DNA of 63,193 bases, the filler included, from Reclinomonas americana ATCC 50394 (Eukaryota), in NCBI GenBank assembly GCA_048213135.1. It is 13 parts of 13 records of this genome, joined end to end, with 100 filler letters (N's around TTAATTAATTAA, not from the genome) between each part and the next. Parts side by side here need not be neighbours in the genome. Positions count along the whole stretch, not along the records: positions 1,854 to 7,669 come from AFZH01021673.1; positions 7,770 to 10,369 come from AFZH01021674.1; positions 10,470 to 17,868 come from AFZH01021675.1; positions 17,969 to 20,140 come from AFZH01021676.1; positions 20,241 to 36,586 come from AFZH01021677.1; 8 more parts are not named here. One strand, written 5' to 3'. How positions within the stretch are numbered: the first letter of the stretch is position 1; every line of letters begins with the position of its first letter. Positions 1,854 through 35,358 of the stretch are shown piece by piece. Both the position numbers and the translations under genes were made by a program. Below the pieces are notes generated by a model. That model had not been told where the DNA came from and made no database searches. It was given only the letters and a program-made list of their open reading frames with translations.

Positions 1854-3273
1854 TGTGACTTGACTGACATCTATTTTCTCATTTGTGTGTGTGCATGTGT
1901 AGTTGCGAGGTGTGCACGGCGGGCATTCGCGGCAAGTGTCCAGTGTGTCGCGCTGAGGTCCCGGCCGGAGTGCAGCTGCAGCTCAACAGGCCGCTGATGG
2001 ATCTCATGGAGCGCTTCCGCATGGTGGAGATTGGAGGAGGAGGAGGAGGGAGCACGCCGACACCCGCACCTCAGCAGCAGCAGCATCAGTCGCGGTCTGA
2101 CGATGGTGCCTCGTCATCATCCGCGGCCGCACCTGTGGTGGCTGGTGCAGAGGGCACAGCTGCTGCTGCAGCAGCTGGAGATGGTGAAGGGGCAGTGGCG
2201 GCAGCAGCAGGTGCAGCAGGAGCAGCAGCAGAGCCTCCGCCACCACCGGCGACTGCGGGAATGGTGCTGGAGGAGGGCGTGCTGGCGTGTGCGCGGTGTG
2301 GGGAGATGTCGTCGCCGGCGCATGGAGTGTATCGGCTGGCTGCGTGTGCGGGGCATGGCGTGCATGCGGCGTGCTTGGTGGCGGCGGTGCGGAGGCTGGT
2401 GGAGAGTCAGGATATGAGTGCGCAGCTCGAGTGTGGCGCCGGCGCATGCAATAGTCGTTGCGTGGAGGTGCCCGCCTGCTCGTTTTACTCCCCCCTCACC
2501 TGTCGCTCCTGTGCGCGCAGCTATACCGTTGATCATCGTGCAGCGCGCGTTGCGGTTCGCGGAGGAGACGGCGCTGCTGGATCAGTACGACGACTTTCTC
2601 AATCGGCAGTTCGCCTCGGGAGCGCGCATCACGCCGTGTCCGGGGGTGCGTGTCATGTGTCGATAACGTTCCTCCTCTGCGTCATGACGCAGGTTCCTCA
2701 TCTTGTGTGTGCGCGTCTCTCTCTCGCAGTGCGGCAGTTTTTGTCTGCCCGAGGATGCAATCGAGTTGGAGGCCGAGTGCATGTGTGGTGTCCATTTTTG
2801 CTTCAAGTGCGGACAAGAGTGGCGCAACCGGGGTCACCGCATGCCGTGTGGCAACGACGGCTGCGAGCCGTCCATCAACCAGCGCCTCGTGCTGTGCGAC
2901 GAACACGTTGCGTTTTTTTCGTTGCACACATTTTACATGTGCGCACACATATTCACGCGATGCTGTCGAACAGCGCGCTCTTCGACACGGTGTGCCGTCC
3001 ATGCGATTGTGCCCACACTGCAGTGCCCTGCTCGGTACGCTTGCCATCCGTGCGGCTTTTCACTCCCCCCGCATCATGATTTCTCACACCTGACTGTGAT
3101 TTTCGATTGCAGACTGCCACAACCTGGTGGAAAAGCACGTCAACTGCCCCCACTGCCACGGCAGATTCTGCATATCGTGCCTACGTGCGCCACGCAGCCC
3201 CGACGATAGGAATTGGTGCATGCACAATCGCCCATGCCTGGCGGCCCCCAGGCAGCGTCTCCTCGATCAGTGA
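1854..3273 (+). CDS. N-terminal RING + RBR (RING1-IBR-RING2) protein with the catalytic Cys substituted; 5' end lies in the gap
   Basis: CEVC...CPVCR..NRPLMDL RING; RING1 (CARC..YRLAAC.GH.VH.AC); IBR (CMCGVHFCFKC); RING2 spliced as MRLCPHCSALLDCHNLVEKHVNCPHCHGRFCISCL; ends CLAAPRQRLLDQ*. Confidence 0.8.
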
Positions 3274-3381
3274 GTGATGATGTCGCGCAGGTTGCGTCGC
3301 CCGTTGTCGCTAGTTTTTCCCCAGTCTTGTGCTGGCAACCAAATATAAAGCAGCCGCTAGCCGTTTCATTTTTTCACCTCC

Positions 3382-6207
3382 TCAATCATCGTCCTCCTCT
3401 ACGTATCCGTCGTATCCGCTCTCCACGGGGAAACCGGCCCCGCGTGGCAACATGGCCGCGCGCGCCAGCCGACCCGTCGGTTCCACTTCCGGCGTCGCCC
3501 CATCGATCGCCATCTCCGACTCCTCGTCTCCATCCGCTGGTACCTCCTCTACTGGCGCATGATAGCGCGGTGCTGCCGACAGCAGCAGCACCAGGTGCTT
3601 CAGCGACAGTTGCTCGGCCATGCGTTGTCCGCCCAGCACCGCAAACCGCTCCAGTGCCGCCGCGCTGCGCTGGAAGAGAACACGCAGGCACTCCTGGATC
3701 GCCGTCTTGCTCTCAGCGTCCAGCACGGTCTGCACACAGAGCTTCTACTCAGCCACGGTGGTCGACGGCGAGATTCACACACAAAGTAATTCTTGCCTGA
3801 CCTCTCTCATGGCGGCTCGTTCCAACGAACGTGCCATGTCCGTCAGCACCGTATTATTGGCACCCTCCTCCAGTCGCGTCACCAACGCCGAGTCGCGTGT
3901 GAGTCGATTCGTGTACGCTGCACGACGAGTGAGCTTCACGATAACAGCAGAAGCATCAATACTCCACACACACACACCTTGCACAAACTGGACCCACAAC
4001 GGTTGCACGATGCTCCACTCCGCCGTCTCAGCTGCGCTTTCAGCTGCCACGCGAGTTCCCCACACGAGAAACGCATCACAAGCCAACCACAACGCGAGAT
4101 GCTCTTCCTCCGTGAGCTCGCCCACCGCCGACTCGTACACAATTGCGTGCAGCGCCAAGCACGCCAAGTGTGCAGTCACCTGAGACGCACGTGCAGAGGT
4201 CAGCGCTGCTGCAGTAAGTACAGGCACTTCCAAATGCACCCGCCTCATCCCACGGGCCGAAACGATACTCGGGCGAGGCGAGTTTGCGCGCCAGGAACAC
4301 ACTTACTGCCGTGTGGCGATTGCGGAAGGTGCTGGGCGAGGCCGTCAGCACATTGTCCAAGATGCACAGGGCGCAGGCGGTCGGCTGATCTCGGGCAAAC
4401 GCCGCTTGCACAAACTCGGCGACGCGCAGGTGACCGTGAAAGGCGATGAAGCGCTCACACGCATCGGCGTCCGTTGTGAGTTGCATGAAGAACGGCAGCA
4501 GCAGCGCGAACCTGCGCGGCAAGTATCAGCCATCTCCATTCATACCTTTTGCGCGGTACACACATCAACAAACCCGTCGCCCTTGAACTGGTGCAGAATG
4601 AGATACGGCAGCAACTCGTCCACCTCGGTCGTCAACATGTCGCTCTCGTCGGAAAAGTACACGCTAAATATTCGCAGACAGGCGAGCGTGACATCGGGGT
4701 GCGGGTCTTGCTCGCCGCGATTGAGAGCATCACGCCGCTCGCGAAAGTAGTGCAGCAGCGAGGTCGCAGACTCTTGTAATCTGCGAAGCAGGAACTGCAA
4801 CTTCTCGGCCGGCAGCGTGGTCAGCGGTCCGTCGTCCACTGCACACGGAATGATGAGTTTCTTTTTCGGTGAGGACGCATGGCAGGCATGCAGGCACGCA
4901 CTGCACAGCTCGCGAATAAACGACTCCAGGATCTGGAAGCACACCGGCAACATCACGCGCGCCTCCTCCGTCATTCTCTCTTGCTCCAGCAATACGCGAA
5001 CCTCCACATGCGTCAGGTCGAGGGCCAGCGACGCAAACGTGCCGAGTTCCTTTGCATCTCGGAGAGATGATGATGACGCGTCAACAAACAGCGATTTCGT
5101 CAGCACCTCCTCGATCATCCACGCCGACCCGGCGTACTCCATCATGACAGACAGCAGTCGGAGTGCCGAGAGACGCTGCGGATGTTCTGCGGAGGAGAGA
5201 CACAGTGCGAGTGCACGTGAGGTCCAGGTGCCACACGCTCTCTCCACGCGCACGGTTACCTGCTCGACGAATGCTGGCGAGAACAGCGTAGAGTCCACGC
5301 CGGACTTGCCTCAGCCATTCCTGCACACACACACACACACACAGATACACATAAGCGTACTGACATCAACTTGAAGCGAGAGAAAGACCAAGAGGGGACG
5401 AACCGGTCGCGGATCATCGACACCAGCAGTGGCCAATGCCAGCGTCGCCGACAGCACGTCCACAGCCGCCATCTTGACCTCGCCACCGCTCTCTGCCTTG
5501 CTCAGCACCCCAGCCAGCACCGACGCCAGTCGCCGAACCTCTGCAACGCGCATCAGCGGAACAACAACGCACCAGGGAAGAGACAACTCACGATCCGCCT
5601 CCAGCCCAGCTCTCCCCTCCACGTGCTGCAGACACCGCGAGGCCACCTGCAACAGGCCAACAGGCACCACCTCCAGTCCCGACTCGACCACGCACAGCAT
5701 GGCGAGGCGCACCAGCAACGCCGACTGCTCCACTCGCGGCACCCACTGCAGTGCACACAACACCGCCATCTCCACAATGCTCTGTGTGCGCCAACACGCA
5801 GGCAACGCCACACACAGTGCCTCCACTGCTGCCTCTGCACTCTCCACCATCTCCGCCACCGCAGCACTGCTGCTCAGCACCTCTAATGCCACCTGCGCGT
5901 ACAGTTCATCCTTGCCTGCGGAACCTGCGCACTCGCTCTCTCGCATGAGAGAAGGAGGAGGAAAAGGGGAGGAGATGGCATGTATAACGCAACGCAGAAG
6001 AGAGAGGAGGAAACGCGGAGTCACACACTCCACTGCTCGTTGCACAGAGTCGACATCAGTGGAGGCGATCACTCGGGGCACGAGGAGCAGTCCGGCGAGC
6101 TTCTCTGTGTGTTGAGAGTGTCACTAGTGTGTGTGAAAGAGAGAAAGAGAGAGAGAGAAGAAACCTTCGTTGGTGGCGCCAGAGAGAAGGCGGAAGCATT
6201 GCTCCAT
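3382..6207 (-). CDS. Neurochondrin-like HEAT/ARM protein
   Basis: The spliced N-terminus MEQCFRLLSGATNEEKLAGLLLVPRVI...VTPRFLLSLLR matches the neurochondrin N-terminal pattern. Leucine-rich helical exons and an acidic C-terminus follow. Confidence 0.7.
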
Positions 6208-6522
6208 GAAAGGACTTTGAGAATTTTGTGACAGAAGAAAGGGACTTTTGAACTACGAACTTCGGCCTTTCTTTCTGCATGCATGCAACACGCCATTGTC
6301 ATCGTTTCACTGGCGGCAACAAAAAAAGAGAGACACGGAAGTGTACAACAGACAGCGGCGAAGTGGAAATACACAATCAGTTGGTGGGGCGGGTGCGTCG
6401 GCAAGGCAGCTGCAGGGCAAACCAACACATCCTGCAGGCGACCGACGCAGACGCCGCGGGCAAACATCAAGGAGTGACTTTGTACAGGGGGGAAAGTAGA
6501 GGAGAGGAGGAATAATACAGTC

Positions 6523-8745
<2,223 letters not shown>

Positions 8746-9360
8746 CTTCTCTCTTCTCTTTCTTTCTCTCTCTTTTGATCACACACAGTCACACAACACG
8801 CGCGGTCTCTTTGCTCTCTTTTTTTGGTTCGCTTGGTGGAACGGGAATCGCCTCCTCTCGCAAGAAAACGCTGCTGATTTTGTGTCGGTTTTGTGATGGG
8901 ACACGACGTTCACTCTGCTTTTGCGCGGTGGAGCCCCACTCGATGGAAAGCACGAAGCAACGACAATGTGCTGCACCGAGAATCGACCGGCGGCACGTGC
9001 TTTTTTGCGCTTATCCACGTGCGCCGCGAAGTATTCAATATCGATATCAACGTCGACGTCGCGAGACCTGTCTCTGGCTCACCAAACCGGCGGCCTGTTG
9101 CAGCATGTGTAATGAACTTGTAGAGGTGACGGTTGGCAATGCACCCGCACAGGGCGCGCCACCAAGGACCGACCACAATACATGACACAGTTCGAATTCG
9201 AACAAAAAGCGACGACACTCGACTCCACCGCGATCACCGACGCTTGCCACTTGCCTGAGTGCAATGCGCATGACCATCCGCGCATGCCAGTGAGCACAGC
9301 AAAGTGCAAAGGGCGCGCATTTTGTCCAAAAGAGCACGCCACACATTACAAACTCGCACA

Positions 9361-10369
9361 ATGAGCACAGCGGACGACGATGACGACGACAGCCATCGAA
9401 GAGGAGGCGCCACTGTCGCCAAGGACGATGATGATGACGACGAAGGGAGCGCACTGTTGCGCGCCAGCGAGTCACTGATGGAGGTGCCGCTGTGGTACCA
9501 CGCACAGCATCCGCCGCGACTGATGCAACAGAGTCGCGTGGCCGAGGGCGCCGTGTGGTCGCTCTCCTCCGATGCCGACATGCAGCGATGGCTGGTCGCT
9601 GGCTCCGACTCGGGCTTCACCGTGGTGGTCGACGTGCAGCGTGTCACCGCCGACAAGGCCGACGAGGGTACGTGTGCTTGTTTGCGCATTTGGCGCGCAA
9701 AGAATCGCGCGCACTGACTGAATCGTCTTCCTTTCGCCAGCGGCTGTGGTTGAGGTGCGCTCGCACACTGGCATCGTGTCGGGCATGTCTCACGTGCCTC
9801 GATCCGACTGCTTTGTGTCGGTGAGCGCCGATGGCTCAGTCGCGGCTGTCCGTGCGTCGACGACACCCCCGACGGTGGTCTCGCTGTCGCGACAGGGCTC
9901 GGGCGCCACCGCCTTTATGAGTGTCGTGGTGTGTCCGTCGGGAAGGCATGTGGCCACGGGCGGAGGCGACACGGTGGTGCGCGTGTATGGCCTGGAGGTG
10001 GATGAGTTGGGCGCGGAAGGGGTGATCCCGTCGGCCTCGGTTCGTCTGGGCCGACTGCTCGTCGAGCTTCGTGGGCACACGAAGGTGCGTTGTTTGTGCG
10101 CGGCCGTGCTGCATGCTGCTCTCCACTCACCGTGTCGCAGAGCGTGGAGGGGCTGGCGTTCTCCAACAATGGAACCATGCTGGCGTCGGTGTCGCGCGAT
10201 GGATCGTTGCGCTTGTGGAATGTTGGTGAGCCGGCGACGGCGCATCGCGATGTGCTCAACAGTGAGCCGCTGTCGCGCGTGGCGTGGTCGCCCGACTCGC
10301 GCCGTGTGGCTGTCACACACTTCATCTCGGGTCCGTCGGCTGTCGTCGTGTTCGACGTGGTCACCGGTC
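9361..10369 (+). CDS. WD40-repeat protein, 3' part lies in the gap
   Basis: SHTGIVSGM..CFVSVSADGSV; VATGGGDTVVRVY; LRGHTK|SVEGLAFSNNGTMLASVSRDGSLRLWNV; VAWSPDSRRVA. Confidence 0.85.
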
Positions 10370-10469
10370 NNNNNNNNNNNNNNNNNNNNNNNNNNNNNNN
10401 NNNNNNNNNNNNNTTAATTAATTAANNNNNNNNNNNNNNNNNNNNNNNNNNNNNNNNNNNNNNNNNNNN

Positions 10470-12764
10470 CCTGCCTTCCTGCCTTGGGCTGTGAGCTGAC
10501 TTTGTGTGTTCAGCAACTTGCGCATCATTCGTCACATGACGCGCGAGGAGGCCGTGGAGATTCTCACGCGTGTGGGAGCGGATAGTGGGCGCGCGCATCC
10601 GACGTTGGTGCCTGGATGCCGCGTGGAGTGCATCCGCGAAGTGGGCCCCATTCATGTCGGCGGTGTGTGCTTGTGTTGCTTTGCATGTTGGTTGTCCGCA
10701 GTCGCTTATCCGCGCACGCAGACCAAGGTACGCTGTGGGATCATGACGACTCGCCGCCGACTTGGTGCGTGCTCATATCACGGCTCTCGTGTCTTATGTC
10801 ATGTGTTAACTTTATTTGTGTGTGCGTGCGTGCGCAGCTACGTCACGTGGGATCGACAGGATTTGCAGACCGAGGCCACGCAGCCGATTCGCGCGCAACT
10901 GGCGGGCGCTCGCGCCGCCAGCGGCTACTGGTGCAACGACGCGTGAGTAGTCGTAGTAGCAGTCGCGAGATAGATGCGCATGTGCGTGTGCGTTCCGCGT
11001 GGCGACTCATGTTCTGTTTTATTGCCGTAGGGATTTGCGTGTGGTTTCACCGCCGGGTGAGGGTGCTAGTGCCGCTGGTCCCGGTCGTTTCTTGGCGAGC
11101 GGCTCGTCGGCGGCCGCTCCTCGAGTACCGGTGCGGTCGGTCGGTGCCCCCAGCGGCCAGACCTACCAGCAACTCAGCGACTACGCCGAGCACTTGCGCA
11201 ACAGCACCGGCAGTCGTGTGCGAGTGGTCGTTGCGTACGGCAACGTCCAAGTCGGCGGTATGTGGTCGACGCACATTTGTTATTTGCCTGCTGTGCACTT
11301 GTTATTGATTGTGGTTGGCAGATATCGGCAAGCTGCAGTTTGTCGACTACTTGCCGCCGGAGGACATGATTACGGAGGCTTACCCGCCACCATGGTTTGT
11401 GGTGCTTTGCAAGCAAGGTCTATATTCTGCGAGCTCACAATATTCCGTGAATTACAGCTACGTCACATTCGACCGCGAGCTCAATTCAACTGCCGAGGTT
11501 CCGCCAGCGCACGACTTGTACGACGTGAATCCGCCGCGTTCACGCGGAGCGTGGGTTCCTGTGGAGTTGCGCCGCGAAATTGTTCGATATTTTTTGATGC
11601 CGTGTTTTGATGCTCACATATAAGTGCAGGTGCCTGCAAGTGGAGAACTCGAGCCGCGCCCCACCGAACTCACCGCCGCCGCCCTCCTCATCGCGTGCGC
11701 GACCATCGCTCCCCGCCGGCGTGCAAGTGATGACCGACCAAAGTCTACAGTGTGTCGTCTGCACCGACCGCAGCGGCTCCGTCTACCGTCTGCAGTGCAC
11801 GCACGGAATACACGGCGAGTGCATTCGTGACTCCATTGGCCCTCTGGTGGCCTCGGACTCGCGTCATCCGCTCAAGTGCCAGCAGCGCGGATGCACCCAG
11901 GGTGAGTGGCTTCATTCGTGATTGAATTGAATCTCACCCTGCCATCTCACTGTTGGTCGCAGCGGTCCCGCTGGAGGTGGTGCACCATGCCGCCGTCGAG
12001 GGCGGCTTCGAGCCGGCCGCCGGACAGTACTTTGACCTGCTCAATCGTCAGTTTGTCATGAGTGGCAAGTCCAAGACGTGCCCGCGGGTGTGTTTCCACT
12101 GCTCCCTCTTGTCATCATTTCACGGCGCACTGCTCACGTTTTTTTCGTGCTTACAGTGCCGTGCATCCATCATGCCCGAGGATCCGAACCTGCGTCAGGT
12201 CACCTGCGCTCTCTGCAACACTCGGTGAGCATGAACTGCCGCCTCGTCCTCGTTGCTGGCGGTATCCTCACTCCCACACTCTGCGTCACAGTTTCTGCAT
12301 GCGCTGTCAGAGCCAGTGGCGGGATGCTGCCAACCAACAGTGGTGCGGCAACGATCAGTGTGACTCGGTCGGTCCCAACTCTCTGCTGCGCACGTGCGCC
12401 ACCAAGTCCATCTCCGGCCTTCCTGGCCAGGTGCCGATCATGCGTGCGTGCCCCTCGTGTCACTATGTGCAAGGTGTGGTGCACGACAGAGGACAATTTT
12501 GATTGTGCGTCCTCGTGTAGCTCACTCCTGTCACTGCAGAGCACTCTACGGCCTGCAAACATATGGCATGCCAGCAGTGCGGCGTCAATTACTGCTTCCG
12601 CTGTCTACTTCCACAGCGCAATGGCTTGTGGCAGTTTCGTTGACAAGAACCGCTGCTGTCATCGTCGTCCGTCCGTGTGCTAATCATTTTCCTCTCGCGC
12701 CAACAGGTGTGGTTCATTCCTCGACCCGTGCAATGTTGCACCTCGGCAAACCGTACCCGAATAA
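10470..12764 (+). CDS. RBR E3 ubiquitin ligase with at least two CPH/SH3-like modules; 5' end lies in the gap
   Basis: Modules LVPGCRVECIREVGPIHVGDQGTLW..YVTWDR and DYAEHLRNSTGSRVRVVVAYGNVQVGDIGKL..YVTFDR; RING1 (CVVC..YRLQCTHGIHGEC); IBR; RING2 MRACPSCHYVQEHSTACKHMACQQCGVNYCFRC; ends CNVAPRQTVPE*. Confidence 0.88.
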
Positions 12765-12962
12765 GAAGCGTGCGCCGTCTTTGCACTCTCGCCAGTGCTG
12801 CGTCGCTCCACAAGATTTCTTGTTTCCTTTTGTCGGTCCTTCTCGTTGTTTGATTTCCATCCTCCCAAAATACACGCGTACATCGTGTCAGTCAGCCTCC
12901 AAACTCTGCTGACAGTTTTTACTTTTTGTTGTCGGCATTTGGCCATCTCCCCTCATCAGTAA

Positions 12963-14563
12963 CTAGTAGAAGCCACCGCCAATTGCCCCGTATCGCCCGC
13001 GCCCGATGCCAGCAGCGCGACCTCGATCGTACAGCTGCGCAGAAATATGAGCGAGTCCACATACACACACACACACAAACGAGGGTGCCACATCATACGC
13101 AACGTCATAGAAACGCTGCACAGCACATGCATACGGTCAGTCGCACAATTAAACAAAACTCAAGAATCGCATCGCGCACGCAACATCGTCCTCGTCGTGT
13201 CGCCGCCTGCCCCCTCCCCCTCCACCCATGTGCACGGAACGCCAGTATTCGTCACGTCGCGGGGCAGAGACACACGATTCGCTGCCGCACCACGTCGAAC
13301 CCTCGCGGCGGCGCCAGCGCGATCCACATCGGAAGCAAAAGTCGGTGTCGCAGAGGCCGCAGCGACCGCGCGAGGCGCCGGGAAAGTCACTCATGCAGTA
13401 GCTCGAGCACTGCGTACAAGCGGAGGTCATTTCGGGAGAGAGAAACAGAGAGAAAACACACAGAGAGAGAGACGGAACCTGCGGGCACGCCACAATGTGC
13501 GACTGGTCAGCCCATGATTGGTTCAGCATGGCCTCGTACTCCTGCAGCAGCGCCTCTTCACCCGCTCGCAGCAGCGCATGCTGCACGGCGACCAGCGACA
13601 CGGCTTCGCAGAAACAACAACGACATAAGACGAAAAAAGCAACCGAACCAAACAGACAGCGCAGAACCACGCACGGATATCACACGAGCGATCGCCACAC
13701 TTGAGCTGCTCCGGGTGTGCCGAGTCCCTGTTGCTGGCCACCAACGCCTGCACCTTGTCCAACAAGCAGTGCGCATGGACCTCATGCTGACACGGCAGGC
13801 GGTAGCGCGGCTCATCGAGCGCCAACTCCTTGCAAATGCGACACTGGCCACTCTTTCCACGGTCAAGGAACTGCACACCGCTGTCGCCAAGCACCGGAAG
13901 CTCGCTCTCTGGCACCGACTGCCCCGGCCCACGACGCACCTGCGCGCATGCATGGCCACAGTAAGCGTGCGCGCGCGCGACAAGCCAAGTCGAGCGGACA
14001 GTACCTCTCCCGGCGGAGGCTGTGCAGGACCTGCCTCACCGCCCTCTGGTCGCACAGGAGCCGCACGAGGCACAGCGACTACAACAGGACCCTGCGGCTG
14101 TGCCTGCACAGGAGGCTGAGGCTGCGCAGGCTGAGAAGGCTGAGGAGGAGGAGGAGGCGACGGATCGACGCCTGCTGGACCGGCCCCCGAGGCCTCCACA
14201 ATGCCAAGTCGCACGGCCTCCCGTTGCACGCGCTTCAGCTGCACTATGAGATCAATCAGCGGCTGGTTCACCTCAAAGACGCCATCGACCGCGGCCTGCA
14301 CTCGCGCGCTGCTGCCTCTGCACAGAGGACACATGCTCTCCGCGGTCAGCGACTGTGAGCATTGACGACACCTGTGTGTGCACACAGAGTAGTGTCAGTG
14401 AGCAGGCACAGGCACAGGCAGAGAGACAGACAGAGAGACACAACATGCAGTGTCCCTGTCCGCAGCGGAGAAACACGGGCATTTCCGACTCTTGCTCGTC
14501 GCTGTAGTTCTGGAAGCACACAGGGCACTGTGCAAGGTTCAGCGCCTCCTCCAATACGTTCAT
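12963..14563 (-). CDS. N-terminal RING + RING1 + IBR protein lacking RING2
   Basis: MNVLEEALNLAQCPVCFQNY..CGQGH..CPLCR..NQPLIDL; RING1 CRIC..YRLPCQHEVHAHC; IBR CGLCDTDFCFRC; then a short Gly/Arg tail. The 3' exons are less certain. Confidence 0.75.
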
Positions 14564-14706
14564 TGTGCGTGTGTGTGTGTGTGTATGTAAAGAGCCTTGC
14601 TGTCAGAGACGCAAGCAAGAGTGGGTGAGAAGCGCGGAATATTTGCGTGTCCCGTCCGCAAGGCTTATCTATCGTCCGCTCACTCACTCTCTCACTCACT
14701 CCGTCC

Positions 14707-25212: not shown

Positions 25213-28200
25213 ATGGACACGCAAAAGCAGCAGGTGAGTGTGAACTGCGTGTCACGAGTGCGAGTGAGATGGCGCTGAGAAAAGTGCGTGCTGTGCAGGA
25301 ACTGTCGCGCATGCTCGCGGCCATGGGCCACGAAGCCGTCGAGCGCCTTCGCCGTGCCTCGGTGCTCATCACTGGCCTCAGTGGACTTGGTGCAGAGATT
25401 GGTCAGTCTCCCTCTCCCTCTGTCTGTTCATCACAGGGCGTCTCTCACCCCAATGCGAAATCAGCCAAGAACCTCGTCTTGTCAGGCATCCAGTCACTGA
25501 CACTGCATGACGATCAGGCGACCACATGGAACGATCTCTCGTCGCAGGTGCACTCGCTCTTTCCCCTCTGACTGCTGTCCACTGCACGTTGGTCGCTGAG
25601 TGTTGTCCGCATGTAGTTCTTCTTGGGTCCGGACGACGTGGGCCAGAACCGCGCCGAGCGCAGCTACGCAGGTGTGGCCGAGCTCAACCCCGACGTGTCG
25701 GTGCGTGTCAACACGGAGGGCGCGCTGCCGAGTGACGAGCTGTTGCGGTCGCATGCGGTTGTCGTGGTGGTCGACAAGCCGGCGCGCTCGCTGCTGAGTC
25801 GCGTGGAGCGCACGTGTCGCGAGGCCGGCACGCACCTGGTGTGGGCCGAGAGCCGAGGCCCCTTTGGTGGCGTGTTTTGTGACTTTGGACCGGCGTTTGT
25901 GTGCTCTGATGTCGACGGGAAGAGCTGCCAGCCCATGAGCATTCTCACCATTGTTGCGCACATGCAATTTTCTCTGTCTCGGACACAGCTCGCTTTCTCT
26001 GACACTGTTGATGCAGACCGATCATGGTGAGGTGGTGGTGCACGACAGCACTCCGGCGGACAACGTGTACCGCGGCTCGCTGGTGCGTTTTGTGTGTGTG
26101 TGTGTGTGTGTGGTCCTCCGTCTTTCGTGTTCGTGTCCGTGCTGAGTGGTGGCGTCCGGACAGGTGGCCTTCTCCGAGGTCGTCGGCTGCGAGGGCATCA
26201 ATGACAGGCAGCTGCGCGTGGAGGAGGTCCACGGCAACACCATCATGGTGGGCAAGCTGGCGGATCATGGCATCACTGGCGAGTACGCCAGCGGCGGCTT
26301 GGTGCGACGCATCAAGGAGCCGAAGACCATGGCCTTCGTTGCGTCATTGCAGAATGCACTCTTTCGCCATCATACATTCACTCACATCTCCTCACACCAC
26401 ACCAGAAACCGCTGAGCGAGTCGATTGTGTCGCCCGACTTCAACGTGGAGACTGGCGAGCTGAAGGATCACCTGCGACGCGGCGTGCACCTCGGTTTCCA
26501 GGCCATTCACGAGTTCGAGGCTGAGGTCGGCGGCCTTCCTCGCTCGGCTTCCGTCGTTGCGTTTTGTTGTACACGCTTTTCTGTTTGTGTGTCACGGCTC
26601 ACCTTCTGCGCACCCCCAGGAGGATTCTGAGCGCGTCATTGCCATTGCGCGCCGCTTGGCCGGTGACGCCGCGCCGCTTGACCGCGACGAAGTGGACGTG
26701 GTGCGCACGCTGTCGTTCTTTGCCCGTGGCAATCTCAACAGCATGGTCAGTGTCGCCGTTTTTCTTCCTACCCCCTCGTTGTGTGCTGACCTTTCTCTCT
26801 CTCTCCCCCATAACAACAGGCTTGCGCTCTCGGTGGTTTCGTCGCGCAGGAGGTTGTCAAGGCCGTCTCCGGCAAGCTGCAGCCGTTGAAGCAGTGGATG
26901 TACCTCGACGTGTGCGAGATCCTTCCGTACGACGCCCCGCTGCCAAGTGCCGAGTACGAGCCTGTTGCGTCGCAGTTGACACCCCACTGTGCACTCCACT
27001 CGCTCACCTCCACCCCCCCCCCCTCTTTCTCTCTCCCGCAGCGCAACAACCGCTACGACGGACAAGTTGCGGTCATTGGGCACACGCTGCAAGACGAGCT
27101 GATGAACAAGAAGATCTTTGTGGTTGGTGCCGGTGCACTCGGCTGCGAGTACCTCAAGAACCTGGCACTCATGGGCTGCGGCTGCGGTCCCGACGGCCTC
27201 GTCACGGTGCGTACACCTATGCACCACGTGCATTTTTTTCTGATTCACTCACTTGCTCGCTGAGCAGGTGACTGACATGGACGCCATTGAGACGTCGAAC
27301 CTGAATCGCCAGTTCCTCTTCCGCCGCCACCACGTTGGAGTTCGTCCCTTGTGCCCCCCATTCACGTGTACCGCCGCCCATGTTGCTGATCTACCTCTCC
27401 CCTCTGCGCAGCAAATGAAATCCAAGGTGGCCGGTGAGAGCGTCAAGCGCATCAACGCCGACTTCCACGTGCGTTCGTTGGAGAACCGCGTCAACGATAC
27501 CACCGACGCCACCTTCTCCGAGGAGTTCTGGCTCTCACAGAACCTGGTGCTCACTGCCGTCGACAGCTTCGAGGCGCGTCGTTCCATCGAGAAGCACTGT
27601 GTGGCCGCGGGCATTCCGTTCTTCGATTCGGGCACTCTGGGTGTGGAGGCTCACTGCCAGGTTTGTACATGTGTAGCGCTCTATGTCGACACACGCTCTA
27701 ACGACATCAATACTCTCTGCAGCCCATTATCCCCCGCTTGACAGTGCTCTTCACTGCCCATCGCGACTCGCCCGACCGCAAGGAGATTCCAGTGTGCACG
27801 AAGAAGTACTTCCCGTACCAGCCGGAGCACACGATTCAGGTCTGTTGATTGATTTAGTGTTTGTTGTTGTTGTTGCCACTCTACTCATCCTCTTCTGCTC
27901 TCTCGGACCTGCAGTGGGCACTCGACGAGTTCGCCAATCACTTCACCCTCATTCCGCAACGCGCCAACGCATACATCACCGACGGCGCCATGTTTGAGGA
28001 GAAGTTCAAGGGCATGGAGCGTGGCACGGTGCGTTGAGAATCAAAAATAATAATCGTCTGCCTGTGTCACTTGGCTAACTCGCATGCACCTGGGGACACA
28101 GATGGTTCGCCAGCTGCACTCGTTCCTGGTGGCCGACCACGCGAGCACATTCGAGGACTGCGTCGTGTGGGCACGCAAGCTGTTCGACGAGTACTACCTG

Positions 28201-29585
28201 CGTTCAGTGCGTGTCCTGCTGCAGACGTACCCACCGGGGTGCCTCGACAAGCACGAGCAGCCGTTCTGGAGCGGCACCCGCCGTTTGCCGCAGGAGATCG
28301 CTTTTGACCCGTCTGACCCTGTGCATGCCGATTTCGTTGTCGCCGCCTCCATCCTGCGCGCGCAGACTATGGTCATTGACGATTCGCTGATCCCTCGCCT
28401 GCCGCTCGCCGCCCTTCGCGAGCATGTCATCTCCATTGCCACGGCGCGTGAGAGTGCAGCTGGCGCATCGGCCGCCGAGGAGGAGGCTCTCGCTGCCTCG
28501 ATTGCCTCCGCTCTGGAGGCAGAGGCGGCCGACGAGCATGCCAGCAAGGCCGGCACGGTGTCGGCGACACGCACCCAGGGCCCGCAGCGCTCGGCTGCCG
28601 CTCGCCTTCCGGAGCTGCCGTCGTCGGAGGAGCTGCACGGGCGAGTGGTACCACCTCGCAGCCTCACGTTCGAGAAGGACGAGGTCGGCAACTGGCACGT
28701 GGAGTTTATTCAGACGGCCAGCAACCTGCGATCGCGTTGCTACCGGTATGTGTGCCTCCTTTTTTTGCGGCTTTGCTGTCGTTTACAATGTGCTCATGTA
28801 CTCGGTCTCTCCGCACAGTCTGCGTGAGGTGGACCGACTGGAGGCGCAAGTCACTGCTGGTCGCATTGTGCCGGCGCTCGTGACCACCACCGCCTTTGTC
28901 ACGGGTCTCTCAGGGTTCGAAGTGCTGAAAGTTGAGTGTTGTGCGATTCACTTTGATCGTGTTGCATGAGCACTGAAATGTGTGTGCATGCACAGTACCT
29001 GCAAGGCAAGGGTGTGGAGTGCTACATGTCCTCGTTTATCAACCTCAGTGTTCCGCAAGTGCTCGTCATGTTTGCCGACGCCTGTGGCACGGTGAGCGCG
29101 CAACTGACTTGCCTCAATGGCACCGTAAATTGCATGCTTATTCGTGTTTTTGCAGTACGATTTCGCCGGTCAAGAGTACACGGCGTGGGACTCGATCCGT
29201 GTGGACGCTGAGGCGGCGGCGACTGTGGGTTCCTTTGTTGACCATCTGGAGCGCACATACGGAGTGATTGTCGGCTCTGTGGCCGGTGCCGACAACACGT
29301 TGTGGTACATGGACATGTGGAAGGGCGACAAGTTGGCGACGGGTCGTGCCAAGACGTTGCGTAGGCTTGATGGTGACGATGGGTCGTCTTTGATGTGCTG
29401 ATGGTGATCACTCCGGAAAAAAATGCAGATTTGCCGAGTTGCAGGGCGCCAGTTCGTCGTCAGCAGCTCCGCAAAAGTGGCTGCAGCTGCACGTGTCGGT
29501 CGACCGCGGAGAGACCATGTACTCGACGCAGCCGGTGCCTGGCGAGACCGTGCGCATGCCGGCAGTCTTTGTCGCACTGTCTTGA
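25213..29585 (+). CDS. Ubiquitin-activating enzyme E1 (UBA1/UBA6 family), divergent, 19 exons
   Basis: [77 protein letters not shown]; catalytic IPVCTKKYFP..EHTIQWA (Cys codon 27795); FEKD; AGRIVPALVTTTA; C-terminal UFD-like region. Confidence 0.95.
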
Positions 29586-29706
29586 TCAATCACACACACG
29601 CACACACGCACACGCACGTCCTCAACTTTGAAGCAATAATACAAGAGCGGGTGTTCGTTCGCTGCATCAAACAATTTTGCCACTTATATTTTTCTCGTCT
29701 CGCCAT

Positions 29707-32700
29707 TCAATCTGCTATCTGCTGCCGGTCTGCGACGGGACACGGCGTCAAGAAGATGCCACACCTGTCAATCGGGCAACAAGAGCGTGTCAGAAGCCAA
29801 CAGGTGGAATGGCGCACGACAGAAGGCTACGTAACGGCCAGTCACCACCTCGTGGCTTCACTTGCAAACAACGGAAACAGAATTCGGTGCCACACTGTTG
29901 CGCGCGGAGAGAGTGAGAAGGCACTTTTCGTATTTTAGCAAAGCGTGAATACGTACCCCTGCTCGTGTGCATCGCACATGCTTGCAGGCCTCGGCGTGCT
30001 CTGCACAGCGCCCGAAACCATGAGCGACAGAAGCAAGAGTTACACGCACAGACAACGCACCGACAAGGGTATGACATCTGGGGCACGCGCGAATCGCCGG
30101 CACGGTACCAGGCAAGCCGCTGATTGTCTTGGTGCCGCATGTACGTAGCACGACGCTTACACCCGACGAATCGCAGTCTGCATTGCCACACCAGCGTCCG
30201 TCGGCACCCGATCGCCACGACCTCTCACAGCGCAAACAAAATCTACGGGTGCGCGCGCACACACACAATCGTCGTGAATACCACCGCCTGATGACATTGC
30301 CACACTGCAGAGAGAGGGAGAGAGACGCAACTCGGTACTGCACAGGCCACAAGTGATGCGCCGCAGGTTCGGATCTTCAGGCATGATGGAAGCTTGGCAC
30401 TGCCGACACACACACCCAAAGCACTGGTAAGAAGAATAGATGCAGAGTGGCTGGCAATCACTGGCGAGTGCGACAAACCCGGCTGTTCGGGCACGTCTTG
30501 GCCTTGCCGGTGAGGAATTGTCGATTCAGCAAGTCAAAGTACTGGTGCGACAACTCCTCGAATCGCGCCTCGCTGGCGGCACTGGTGACCACGTCCAGTG
30601 GAACGACTGCCAGTGCACGAGTGAGTGGATGAAATCAGTTCACGCGCACGAGACGAGGAAGCGCAACTGGCTTTGCATCCACCGCGACAGCAAGCCAGTG
30701 GCCGAGTCGAGTCCTCTCGAATGAGAAGCTGCAATTGTGCACGCATGCACTCGGCGTGCACGCCGTGCGAGCATGGCAGGCGGTACACAGTGCCCTCGTT
30801 ACCCGTGCAGTACTCGCACGTGCATCCGCCAGTCGTCTCCAGTCGCACATTGCTGCGCATGGTCGGCATGGGCCCGCCGCCGCTACCACTTGCCGCAGCC
30901 GCTGCTGCTGCGCTGGCCGGCGCCTCTGCCGCTCTTGCCAAGCGACGCATGGTAGGAGGGGCCATTGTCATGTCCTCCAGCTGGAGACATCTGCGCACGG
31001 AGGGGTAGTGAGCAAAAGACGGCGAACATGCTGAGGATGGAGGCGGCCGAGGAGTCGCAACTCCAGTGGCATCCACTGTCCGCGATTGGCGAATGGCGCA
31101 AGGTCGGGGCACTCGTCGGGCACGAAGGCGTCGGATTGAAGATCGCGATCAAAGGTAACATAGCTGCAGAGCGATTTAGCGTCAGCGCACAACTACAGAC
31201 AAACTCGTGCACGGCATGCACTCACCATGGTGGTGGGTACGCCTCGCCTCGCAGATCTGGTGGCGGCAAGTAGTCGACGTGTTGCAGCACTCCACGATCT
31301 GTGCCCCAAGAGCGCATCAGATGAACACGTAGCGTTCACAAACAGTGTGCTCACGCGCGCCACTCACCACCAACTCGCACGGTTCCGTGTGGCCGAATGA
31401 CATTCACACGCTCGCCGACACGAGTACGCAGCTGCTCGCAGTACTCGTCCAGAGCGGCGGCATCAATGACTGGCTCTGCGGCGCGCTTTATCAGTTCATC
31501 TGGTACCACCACAACCACCACCACAACAACAGCAAGACATGCAACTCCACCTTCAGGAATGACTGGAGTCGAGCCCGACGCCGCTCCAACAGCACCGCCA
31601 CCAGGCACTGCAGGTACCGCTGCCGGTTGGGCTCCAACCACGACTCGGATATCACTGCGACACAAGAAAGGTCAGTTGACTCTACATACAAGAGCGCACG
31701 ACGAGCGACGCACGAGTCATTGACCCAGAAGCCGCTCTCTGCGCGACAGCCGGCCAACGCAGCGCGCATCGGCATGGCGCTGTCGGATTGCAAATCGGCG
31801 CGTTCCCAGCTCACATAACTGCATGAAAAATGAGAGTGAGCCACACGCTCATACCAACAAGCGCAAGGCAGGAGAATATGCACTCACCATGTCGGCGGGT
31901 ACTCGTCGTGCTCCCACAGCGTTCCCTTGTCTGTCGATTTCGCCAGCAAACAAATAAGTTCATCGTCGCAACCACGCTGCTGCGATGCACAACTCACCGC
32001 CAACATTGACGGGCCCCACGGCACGGATGCACTCGACCCGTGTGCCAATGCTGATTTGGCCGGCGCCACCTCCGCCACCACCGCCGCCGCCGCCTCCACC
32101 GCCGCCACTACCAATGGCACCACCACCACCCAGTCGGCGCAGCAAGGCCAGCGCCTCATCCCGCCGCTGGTGCCGAATGATGCGTAGATCGCTGCGACAC
32201 ACACTCAGCAACAGCATGCTGCACAATAGACAAAGAGACGCGCCACACTCAACCGGGGGAACACCCAGTAGCCGTGGCTGCGTGGACACCCCGCATCCAC
32301 CGCCTCACGCGGCACGAGGCCGCTCGTCCACCGCAAGTTTCGATCCCACGACACATAGCTGCACAACAGTCAACAACAACCCTGTGCCGCACACGCTCAC
32401 GCAGCAAAAAAACGCAACAAGCCGCCACGCTCATGACTGACAATGAACGTTCCCTTGTCTGCATGCCACGTACTCATCAGTGACAAGCATAGTGGGGCGG
32501 GAGACCCTCCACACACAACACACCTCCTTGTCGCACAGCAGCATCCTGCATGCGTATGCACTCGACCCTGTCAAACATCTCAATCGACTCCTCCACAAAC
32601 CCGCCATACGCGTCGCGGTCGCCTCCAAAGTCCGCCAGCGTGAGGATCTCATCCTCCTGATCATCCACTTGCGGCGCCTCCTCGTCTCCATGCCGCTGAT

Positions 32701-32951
32701 GCTCTTCCTCACCTCCTCCTCCACCACGAAGTTGCTGCTGTTGCTCTTGCTCATGCTCTGTGTGTGTGTGTTCGGTTAGGGATGCATCACTGTGTGGCAC
32801 AACACGCGATGCGTAACGAATGAGGCTGCCCAGCAGCAGCAGCATAGCAAGATCCTTTTGTATGTTCCACGCACACACACACGCACACATGACGTTGTCA
32901 GATGGAGTGTGCAGTGACTGCGGAAACTCTGTACGCAACTTGCGCGTTCAT
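29707..32951 (-). CDS. RBR E3 ubiquitin ligase with three CPH/SH3-like modules
   Basis: Three RVxxIR..V..GD.G...YV[ST][WF][DE]R modules; RING1 CEYC..YRLPCSHGVHAEC; IBR; RING2 IRACPRCHTLVEHAEACKHVRCTRAGCGTEFCFRC; ends CPVADRQQIAD*. The start codon is tentative. Confidence 0.88.
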
Positions 32952-33346
32952 CTTCTCGTTGTCTGCGGGTATGCGTTTCACACACACACAGAAAGAGAGA
33001 CACGCCCACAGAGGCACACACAGCAGCGCGCGTGTCTGTCTGAGTTTTGAGCGCCGGACGACAGTGTGTGTGCGGACGGAGCTCGCGCGCTGGACGTGTT
33101 CCATTTGTTGCTGCAACTGCAGTGTGAGTGCCGTGTTTGTGTGCGTGGTGTCTCTGTCTGTGCGTGCGTGTGTGTGTGCGCTCTGCTGTCTGTGCCTGTG
33201 TGACTTGCGTGTGCATGAGAGTGTGCCACGTAATGTGTGTTAGTGTCCGCCTGCCTCCTATTCTCACTTTTCTCTCTCTCGCATTCGCATTTTCCAGAGG
33301 CGTGCTGTGTGTGCGCGTGTGTGCGTGTGTGGAGAGAAAGTCACAA

Positions 33347-35358
33347 ATGAGCACCGAGTGCCGCGTGTGCTTCCAGTCGTATTCGTCGGAGAGTCATGCG
33401 CAGCCGAGTTACGTTTGTTTCTCCGCGTGTGGCGCGTGCGATGTTTTTGTGCTCACTGTGTGCCGTGTCGCGCACTCGCTTGTAGTGATCAGCCAGTGCC
33501 CCACTCAGTGCACCATGTTTCGTCACCATCATCATTGCATTCGTGTTCGGTGGTCGTGGATTGACTTTCGTTGTTTGCGTGTGCTGCACAGCTGTCGTAG
33601 CTGCGCGCAGCATGTGACCACTGTGTGCCCCGTGTGCAGTGCGCCAGTGTCGCGTCCGGGTACCGACTTTGTGGTCAATCGCGCCTTCATGGACCTGTTG
33701 CAGCATGTGCCGAGGAACTCGCTCGCCGCGAATACGCCGCCTTTGCAGCTGCCTGCTCATCCTCCGCCGGACGGCGACTGGCCGCGGTATGATGGTCAAA
33801 TGCAGCCGCTTCCGCAGCCGTCGGTGCCGCAGCAGCAGCCGGCACACAATCAGCCGCATGGCCCGCCGCCAGCGCCTGCACAACGCGCAGATGAGGCGGG
33901 CCACCTTTGTGGATCCTGTGGTGCTGTGGGAGCTGCAGCATCGCTGGTGGACCTTGGGTGTGGCCACTACATTCACTCTGCTTGCTTGTGCACTTCTGTG
34001 CAACAAACAATCGAGGAGAATGACCCGTCGAGCACGTTGGTGTGCCAAGTCCGCAACTGCGATATGCGTTTCGTACTCGCCGACGAAGGAAGGCAAAGAT
34101 GCACTCTGTTTTGTCAACTCACACAATGTTCTGCTTGCCTTTCTCTTTCTTTTCTCGCCCAGCAATCGGCTTTGCGGCCATTCACTCCGCCCTCACGCAG
34201 CGCGACCAACGAGATCTGCTTCGATCGTACGACGATTTTCTCGATCGACAGATGGCCAGTGGCTCCAAGTTTACTCCATGCCCGCAGGTGCACCTCAGAG
34301 AGATGTTGGATTGGCGCCTGTTTCGTCTGATAACTCACTTTGCTTCTTGTTCTCTACTCGTGCCTGTCAACGAGCAGTGCCACTCTCTGTGTCAGGCCGA
34401 GAACGGCAACCAGATGTTTGCTCGATGCAACGTCTGTGAGACCCAGTTTTGCTTGCGATGTGGGCAGAATTGGCAGCCGGCGAGCCGCGGAATCGGATGT
34501 GGTAACGCGAACTGCCGTCGGCAGTTCCGCGACCGAGAACTACCGCCGGATTACGATGTCGGTGGTGGCCGTGCGGGTCCTCGTGGTCAACCGCCTGAGT
34601 ACATTGAATTTGGTGGCCAGCGGTATCTTGTGGTTGACCCAGCCTATGTGCCCGACCACGGCATGCAGCGGCCGCCGGGAGTTTTCGACGACCCCATACG
34701 CCCGCCGGACTTGGCGCGGCAGCAACTCGGACTCGATGGTGGTGACAGAGGCTTCAACGGCGACGTTGGGCAGCACTATCCAGCGATCAGCAGACCGCCG
34801 CAAGGCCGCCGTCGCGAGATGCTCCGTCTCGCTGACGGCACGCACGTGATGGCGGTTGCTGTGAGCAATATGCGAGGGCACCGCGATCAGTATTACCATG
34901 GTCATCCTGCGTGGTATAGTCCCACAGTGCGATCGGACGGGATCTCTGTTGGCATGCGGATCCCGCAGAGTCAGGATGTCAATGAGATGCTTGCGTCTGC
35001 ACCCGTGGTGGTGAGCAGTTGGCGAAGGTGCATGCTGTGTGTCTTGTAACAATGCTCACCTTGTTTGTTGGTCCGCAGACCGTCGGCAGTCGAGACATTC
35101 CCATGTATCGTTCATGCCCCAACTGCTCGCTTATTCATGGTTTGCTCCTCTCGAAGTTGCGATGGCGTGCATGCACGAATCTCAGCTCACTCTGCCACCA
35201 CAGACTTGCGAGATCAGCCGAATCCGCCGTACTGCGACTGCGTTTGTGACTTCACCTTCTGCTTTGCATGCTTGGCGAAGGATCCCGGAATTACGCAGAC
35301 AGGCCTTTGGCACGTTTGGCGCGGCAAGTGCCGCGTTGCAGATCGGCAGCATCTGTGA
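33347..35358 (+). CDS. N-terminal RING + RBR protein with a degenerate catalytic loop
   Basis: MSTECRVCFQSY..CPVCSAP..NRAFMDLL; RING1 CGSC..LGCGHYIHSAC; IBR CNVCETQFCLRC; long insert; RING2 YRSCPNCSLIHDLRDQPNPPYCDCVCDFTFCFAC; ends CRVADRQHL*. Confidence 0.82.

Follow-up and report, generated by a model that had tools for sequence, protein, structure and literature searches.

In a window of 63,193 nucleotides (filler included) from Reclinomonas americana ATCC 50394 (GCA_048213135.1), which is the whole stretch of DNA that we analyzed, a group of paralogous RBR-type ubiquitin ligase (E3) genes falls into two kinds. Three paralogs with an extra N-terminal RING (g1, g3 and g7) lack the catalytic cysteine of RING2, whereas three others (g2, gB and g8) retain it in a conserved motif. 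According to the part of PMC3305615 available to us, the RING2 cysteine is required for RBR catalysis. Our results support that g1, g3 and g7 are RBR-derived and would be unable to run the thioester step via the usual RING2 cysteine. Among the explanations weighed below we tentatively prefer, while holding it somewhat short of probable, that this clade may work through its added canonical RING, with the RING2 thioester having become dispensable.

The catalytic position of RING2

The last part of RING2 opens with E-H-x-x-A-C-K-H in g2, gB and g8, and the motif is also present in a further copy, g4. At the column of the active copies' Cys, g1 has a Glu codon (3130-3132), and its last exon reads D-C-H-N-L-V-E-K-H-V-N-C. 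All presumed zinc cysteines of the g1 RING2 are kept, and six residues before the Glu there is a spare Cys. In g7, the loop is remodelled to Q-P-N-P-P-Y-C-D-C-V-C, where PNPPYCDC is found at 35218-35241; the catalytic column is Pro, and neither the catalytic Cys nor the His remains. The third gene, g3, terminates 87 codons into its IBR exon and is without RING2. An optional last exon, read by eye, moves the g3 stop to 12963, adds no Cys-rich sequence and still gives no RING2. The catalytic cysteine that characterizes RBR E3s is thereby found in g2, gB and g8 and not in g1, g3 and g7. An earlier note on this DNA had reported LVEKHVNC with a Cys to Glu change near 3128, PNPPYCDC with loss of Cys and His near 35220, and a gene at 12963-14563 lacking RING2. 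These readings hold, the last one with the stop at either 13149 or 12963, and the statement that all extra-RING paralogs have lost the catalytic RING2 is borne out for three of three in this window.

The earlier note had also raised the possibility that alternative splicing restores a Cys-x-His loop, and such a loop was looked for. We scanned stop-to-stop frames of at least 40 residues for C-x-H-[MIVLF]-x-C, a search that would overlook shorter exons and loops spelled differently; neither g3 nor g7 had a match within it or next to it. The space downstream of g3 up to the g2 stop (12764) contained no Cys-rich frame in this motif scan or in the profile scan described below. The sole nearby match, C-x-H-x2-C at 2923-2940, was considered as a rescuing exon for g1 and rejected, as it is intronic, does not read in frame and precedes the first Cys pair of RING2. 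The extra RING and the loss of the Cys coincide in three of three genes compared to none of four motif-keeping copies (Fisher p = 0.029), or none of three when g4 is left out (p = 0.10).

Constraint on the RING2 scaffold

The RING2 of the three active copies has nine invariant Cys columns, which we interpret as the catalytic Cys and eight presumptive zinc ligands. Eight of the nine are retained in g1, where the sole loss is the catalytic column, and seven in g7, which has lost the catalytic column and one ligand, beside which a His is present. Of the other aligned RING2 columns, only about a third match any active copy (17 of 49 in g1 and 15 of 49 in g7). With a retention of 0.35 per column, a rough binomial estimate gives p ~0.001 for eight of nine and p ~0.01 for seven of nine. 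Additionally, both genes retain A-R-Q in the tail, and g1 keeps the Lys-His after the lost Cys. The retention of the Cys columns therefore suggests that the RING2 fold is still constrained and that specifically the nucleophile was given up. In g1 and g7, this looks like selective nucleophile loss and not decay, and the retained scaffold and tail would fit pseudo-enzymes or proteins with a changed mechanism better than dead genes. For g3, all RING1 and IBR cysteines are in place, and the gene offers no RING2 evidence on constraint.

The added N-terminal RING

The N-terminal finger was compared with the canonical RING spacing C-x2-C-x(9-39)-C-x(1-3)-H-x(2-3)-C-x2-C-x(4-48)-C-x2-C. In g3, the RING is complete and fits exactly (C-x2-C-x17-C-x3-H-x2-C-x2-C-x9-C-x2-C, C3HC4). 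Given splicing at 33435/33592, the g7 finger has the spacing of g3 with Cys in place of His, i.e., an all-Cys version. The finger ends with C-P-x-C-R in g1 and g3 and starts with C-x-V-C in g3 and g7. RINGs that bind and activate E2~ubiquitin typically have a hydrophobic residue within their first C-x-[VI]-C and place Pro and Arg at the last Cys pair. Pfam matches to the half-domains were weak (zf-C3HC4_3, E = 0.05-0.85). The first intron of g7 (33436-33591, 156 nucleotides) is in frame and stop-free; its retention is possible and would insert 52 residues in the middle of the RING.

Two clades with different gene structures

An unrooted tree of six genes was built on RING1-IBR alone, with the N-terminal domains and RING2 excluded. 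It splits g1, g3 and g7 from g2, gB and g8 (98/98 support), with long branches and no firm branching order within either clade. The gene structures follow the same division. The extra-RING genes share a phase-2 intron inside the N-terminal RING, at the same position and in the same phase, and they also share an unsplit IBR exon and a 61-nucleotide exon carrying the first RING2 Cys pair, while exons of 68 and 182 nucleotides are common to g2 and gB. Both clades have a 125-nucleotide helix exon, an IBR ending in C-G-[NS]-x2-C and a tail ending in A-[PD]-R-Q, and these shared features therefore point to one lineage-specific RBR ancestor for both. The mutual identity of g1, g3 and g7 is 31-38%. 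An insert of approximately 160 residues rich in Pro, Gly and Arg lies between IBR and RING2 in g7 (34534-35010, plus strand) and has no counterpart in the other paralogs.

In place of an extra RING, g2, gB and g8 carry beta-rich repeat modules of approximately 75-90 residues, each spread over three exons, with at least two modules in g2, three in gB and at least one in g8. The earlier note called these CPH-type genes that keep EHxxACKH. The motif is indeed kept, but the domain label found no backing: six third-exon module pieces matched no Pfam family, and a PDB profile search of module pieces gave no match either, in both cases at E up to 10. A resemblance of the modules to CPH domains is therefore only presumptive.

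RBR identity of the family and search for relatives

The order RING1, helix, putative IBR and RING2 with conserved cysteines is found in the alignment of the six modelled proteins (g3 without RING2), and the C3HC4 Cys/His spacing of RING1 is present in all six. The IBR alignment has eleven invariant columns, seven of which are Cys. Pfam was scanned exon by exon, with single exons only. The RING1 exons of g2, g3, gB and g8 matched zf-C3HC4_2, zf-RING_2 and zf-RING_UBOX with E = 2.6e-4 to 1.3e-3, all short of the curated thresholds, and no Pfam RING1 match was obtained for the single RING1-bearing exons of g1 and g7. The IBR exons of g1, g3, g7 and g8 matched Pfam IBR (PF01485) with E = 4.9e-4 to 1.4e-3 (19-21 bits against a cut-off of 24.3). 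IBR or IBR_1 was also matched, below cut-offs, by the RING2 exons of g2 (E = 7.9e-5), g1 (3.9e-3) and g8 (1.9e-2). In a weak alignment (E = 0.18) that has the expected register, the fifth position of the RING2-exon profile falls on Cys310 of ARIH2 in CNHMQC; the active copies have the A-C-K-H Cys at this position, and g1 has Glu. A PDB sequence search with the g1 RING2 exon gave weak matches to the IBR of HOIP (E = 0.56). A match of the g8 RING2 exon to a lectin ran via the tail only and was rejected as chance.

The family has two features of its own around these domains. Its IBR ends in W-x8-C-G-[NS]-x2-C where the usual form is His-x4-Cys (IBR exons 2730-2906, 13260-13409, 34378-34533 and 42893-43075), and the conserved tail ending in A-[PD]-R-Q follows RING2 in all five genes that have a RING2.

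Relatives outside the window were sought in several ways. Word-index protein searches with the first stretch of g7 and longer proteins, with exon 4 of gB and with the IBR-exon alignment gave no match. A HMMER search with the alignment of N-terminal RING and RING1 returned two proteins at E <= 0.001, which were rejected as unrelated RING proteins. In a metagenome scan, the IBR alignment gave 126 pattern stretches, none of which was confirmed. The gB/g2/g4 exon alignment gave 166 stretches and two loci, which were rejected because they lie on bacterial-looking contigs and stem from an out-of-frame short-word match. The first exon of g1 met only generic RING clusters in the ESM Atlas, all with scores < 0.9. 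In the limited open-access literature that we searched, we found no account of a family that combines RING with RBR and lacks the RING2 Cys, which is not proof of absence.

Gene models and neighborhood

Seven RBR-type loci were modelled by hand from the sequence, with exons read on the coding strand and chained by coordinates (Table 1). The GC content of the window is approximately 52-60%, and the genes are broken by short GT..AG introns. Every exon chain of the RBR loci has an open reading frame, and all internal borders are GT..AG. In a local scan, profiles made from the window's own exons were run against all 1,664 stop-to-stop frames, and matches at E < 1e-3 were confined to g1, g2, g3, g4, gB, g7 and g8 (for the RING2 profile, among the matches listed). 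Contig joints are found at 1754-1853, 7670-7769, 10370-10469, 17869-17968, 20141-20240 and 36587-36686, and there are seven others. Each consists of two runs of 44 N flanking a 12-base AT-only spacer, and thirteen such pairs were counted. The window is therefore a chain of contigs in which the gene order across joints may not be real. The genes g1, g2 and g8 begin directly at joints and are all cut at the 5' end.

Table 1. Positions of the RBR-type loci in the window and of the spacers between neighboring paralogs
Feature	Position	Strand	Details
g1, extra-RING RBR paralog	1903..3273	+	exons 1903-2456, 2521-2645, 2730-2906, 2974-3034, 3113-3273; 5'-cut at contig edge 1854
g2, RBR paralog with at least two N-terminal repeat modules	10470..12764	+	5'-cut at 10470
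g2 RBR exons	11625-11901, 11963-12087, 12157-12224, 12292-12473, 12540-12633, 12707-12764	+	
g2/g3 tail-to-tail spacer	12765..13148	.	without RING2-like frame
g3, extra-RING RBR paralog	14563-13149	-	exons 14563-14445, 14371-14005, 13939-13675, 13603-13479, 13409-13149
g4, chimeric USP/RBR duplicate	25086-23560	-	probably pseudogene
gB, RBR paralog with three N-terminal repeat modules	32951-29707	-	start codon 32951 or ~32890
gB RBR exons	30980-30668, 30606-30479, 30399-30332, 30242-30061, 30000-29957, 29894-29836, 29764-29707	-	
gB/g7 head-to-head spacer	32952..33346	.	possible shared promoter region
g7, extra-RING RBR paralog, 512 amino acids	33347..35358	+	exons 33347-33435, 33592-34067, 34163-34287, 34378-35010, 35079-35139, 35204-35358
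g8, RBR paralog with one visible N-terminal repeat module	41819..43456	+	10 exons; 5'-cut at 41819

As the earlier note had described, one extra-RING gene lies tail-to-tail with the active gene ending at 12764 (g3 with g2) and another head-to-head with the active gene starting at 32951 (g7 with gB). The stops of g2 and g3 are 199-385 base pairs (bp) apart, and the starts of gB and g7 approximately 400-450 bp. The orientations of the two pairs differ, and they therefore do not represent a duplicated two-gene unit. The upstream side of g1 is a contig gap with no visible partner, and g8 is without such a neighbor. Neighboring copies are expected in any cluster formed by local duplication.

The remaining copy, g4, keeps E-H-A-E-A-C-K-H but does not belong to the repeat-module genes. 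Over 876 bases, its RBR part shares 96.2% identity with gB, and its 5' part (24480-25086, minus strand) has approximately 86% DNA identity to the start of a USP gene at 23375-21290. One extra T in the helix exon causes a frameshift, and the gB stretch bearing the last two RING2 exons, i.e., the second half of RING2, is missing. Unless the extra base is an assembly error, g4 is probably a recent chimeric pseudogene. The USP gene to which it is related (21290-23375, minus strand) opens with M-G-S-x-C-S, which resembles a myristoylation/palmitoylation signal, followed by a poly-Gln tract.

Other genes of the ubiquitin system are found among the RBR loci. A USP/UCH deubiquitinase gene (14707-~17800, plus strand; UCH E = 5.5e-8) with a long low-complexity N-terminus lies beside the start of g3, in head-to-head orientation and with approximately 144 bp between the two. 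Between g4 and gB there is a UBA1-like gene for a ubiquitin-activating enzyme (27244-28824, plus strand, probably ~25200-29400; ThiF E = 6e-24, UBA_E1_SCCH E = 5e-39), and the cluster therefore unites E1, USP and RBR genes. A neurochondrin-like gene (4540-5307, minus strand, E = 5e-16) lies downstream of g1, and a WD40 gene (9722-10369, plus strand) is cut by the contig joint before g2. A secreted-looking protein with many Cys-rich EGF-like repeats (19083-21096, plus strand; EGF_2 E = 5e-7) is split by a joint. Self-comparison detected tandem repeats of approximately 150 bp with 78% identity at 36792-37396, and a long tract of short-unit repeats at 7088-8065 on both sides of the 7.7 kb joint.

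Discussion

We suggest that local expansion of one lineage-specific RBR family was followed by a split into two clades. The g2, gB and g8 clade would presumably consist of ordinary thioester-forming RBR ligases, and the g1, g3 and g7 clade would have gained a canonical RING at the N-terminus. If direct discharge of E2~ubiquitin by the added RING is possible, as in ordinary RING E3s, the thioester step may have become dispensable. RING2 would then be free either to persist as a non-catalytic, IBR-like zinc module (g1 and g7) or to be dropped (g3), and RING1-IBR could be retained as a binding or scaffold module. A switch to canonical RING catalysis through the added RING was one of the two outcomes proposed in the earlier note. 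For g1, g3 and g7 it appears plausible because the finger fits the RING spacing in g3 and g7, and because all three genes have the intron at the same place and in the same phase. It is by inference that we assign the working catalytic role to the N-terminal RING, and we prefer a move of function to this domain because of its spacing and the E2-activating features given above. A more far-reaching version would be a natural conversion from RBR to RING-type ligase, where the HECT-like thioester step was given up once an E2-activating RING had been fused to the N-terminus, where RING2 is kept as a non-catalytic, BRcat-like module binding ubiquitin or E2, and where the paralogs represent successive stages (nucleophile swapped, loop rebuilt, domain lost). 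This version is possible, but we regard it as doubtful.

Several points weigh against a working N-terminal RING in an RBR-derived clade. As the two gene types are also the two clades, the coincidence of extra RING and Cys loss may reflect a single ancestral event, which makes the sample size effectively one. Only the last four ligands of the g1 finger are visible, as the half before the shared intron is beyond the contig edge, and g7 has Ser and not Arg or Lys after the last RING Cys. The RING and IBR matches in Pfam are all under the curated cut-offs because single exons were scanned, and the RING2 exon and the 240-amino-acid first stretch of g7 had no Pfam match at all. All gene models are predictions from the DNA sequence. 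Finally, g3 could be merely a truncated dead copy, and the RING2-defective RBR paralogs of soybean are thought to include pseudogenes, according to the accessible part of PMC3904995.

The last two points lead to decay, in which some or all of the three genes would be non-functional or dying and the RING2 damage would be the earliest lesion to show. One recent copy in the cluster, g4, is indeed broken, with both a frameshift and a deletion, and a whole domain is missing from g3. In soybean, RING2 deletions are reported for six RBR proteins, and some genes without expressed sequence tags were suggested to be pseudogenes (PMC3904995, as far as its text was available). However, every exon of g1, g3 and g7 is open with GT..AG borders, and although the copies are old, as seen from their mutual identity, they have all kept their RING1 and IBR cysteines. 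In g1 and g7, the Cys columns of RING2 have been retained far beyond the one-third identity seen elsewhere in the domain, and the one Cys lost from g1 is exactly the catalytic one. We therefore find decay rather improbable. A gene-model artefact, where overlooked exons restore a normal RING2 in the true transcripts, is scarcely credible. The models are hand-built, and the 3' end of g3 and the stop-free first intron of g7 are uncertain. Nevertheless, g1 and g7 have RING2 exons that are homologous by position, by phase and by their length of 61 nucleotides and that run on into the conserved tail, and downstream of g3 the opposite strand is taken by g2 within 200-385 bp. Moreover, no further RING2-profile match at E < 1e-3 was present among the matches listed, and the motif scan had no match outside the named loci.

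The other outcome proposed in the earlier note was that the Cys-less paralogs are pseudo-ligases or adaptors paired with active partners. They would have no E3 activity of their own and would regulate or target the neighboring active paralogs, either as RING1-IBR hetero-oligomers or with the inactive RING2 as a decoy for E2 or ubiquitin, in the manner of BARD1 or TRAF2. A nucleophile lost from a retained scaffold is typical of pseudo-enzymes, and to this extent g1 and g7 fit the proposal; pseudo-E3s are moreover an accepted class in the section of PMC13061254 available to us. Two of the three Cys-less copies adjoin an intact paralog (g3-g2 and g7-gB), and the head-to-head spacer of approximately 400 bp could co-regulate gB and g7. 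The pairing, however, amounts to adjacency, which is expected among locally duplicated paralogs. One pair is tail-to-tail and the other head-to-head, which means that no two-gene unit is conserved; no such neighbor is seen beside g1 or g8, and the USP gene is just as near to g3 as g2 is. The adaptor proposal also leaves the added N-terminal RING without a role, and we consider it unlikely. It is very improbable that g1 still forms a thioester through a relocated nucleophile, namely the spare Cys six residues upstream of the Glu in DCHNLVEKH. This Cys is an extra, non-ligand residue in the catalytic loop, in g1 the flanking His, the Lys-His that follows the Glu and every zinc ligand are still present, and migrated catalytic residues are known in apparent pseudo-enzymes (PMC10211241, from the text at hand). 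Yet g7 and g3 have no such Cys, so the clade as a whole would be unexplained, and no precedent for a shifted RBR cysteine was found in the literature examined. An added canonical RING as the working element thus remains the explanation that we tentatively prefer.

The window family has the same RING1, helix, putative IBR and RING2 order as ARIH1/HHARI, ARIH2, parkin and HOIP, and the catalytic string of RBR E3s, C-x-H-[MV]-x-C-x2-C-x4-C-x2-C, is present in g2, gB and g8 with the weak alignment to ARIH2 Cys310. It differs from known RBR E3s in the C-G-N-x2-C knuckle that ends the IBR in place of His-x4-Cys, in the conserved post-RING2 tail ending in A-[PD]-R-Q, and in N-terminal modules unlike those of any named RBR subfamily. 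In g1, g3 and g7, the defining catalytic Cys is also absent. All 14 human RBR members are curated as E3s in the portion of PMC13061254 that we could consult. The IBR/BRcat domain is described as the RING2/Rcat fold minus the catalytic Cys (PMC3940038, available in part). The RING2 of g1 and g7 likewise has a zinc-ligand pattern without a nucleophile and could in effect be a second BRcat-like module. Unlike the BRcat, however, it is located at the RING2 position and followed by the RING2-specific tail, and g1 keeps the Lys-His by the lost Cys.

RING2-defective RBR paralogs are already known in plants, where lineage-specific and tandem RBR expansions are described in the accessible text of PMC2904391. 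In soybean, GmRTRP9-13 belong to a likewise expanded and partly tandem RBR family with several RING2-defective members, as given in the available pages of PMC3904995. There, the defects are RING2 deletions, some in suspected pseudogenes, while in our window the defect accompanies an added N-terminal RING, and g1 and g7 have lost the nucleophile in a point-like manner and retained the scaffold. CUL9/PARC combines CPH, cullin and RBR in one chain (PMC11257990, seen as an extract), and g2, gB and g8 would be parallel to it only if their modules are CPH-like, an identity that neither Pfam nor the PDB search supported. In contrast to CUL9/PARC, these genes are without cullin, DOC or Ariadne parts, and their modules are repeated one to three times. 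BARD1 and TRAF2 have an inactive E3-type domain that may serve an active partner, as could be the case for the Cys-less paralogs. However, those are RING-type proteins with known partners according to the same part of PMC13061254, whereas here the dead part is the RING2 of an RBR protein and the partner is only a candidate by adjacency.

The practical weight of these findings is limited, as no relatives were found in the searches given above and RING2-defective RBR paralogs have already been reported in plants. Still, an obligatory RING2 thioester is what defines RBR ligases, and the g1/g3/g7 clade has kept the fold, lost the nucleophile and gained a second RING. If the explanation that we prefer is true, the clade would reveal which portions of the RBR module serve purposes other than catalysis, and it would provide a natural test of one E3 mechanism replacing another.

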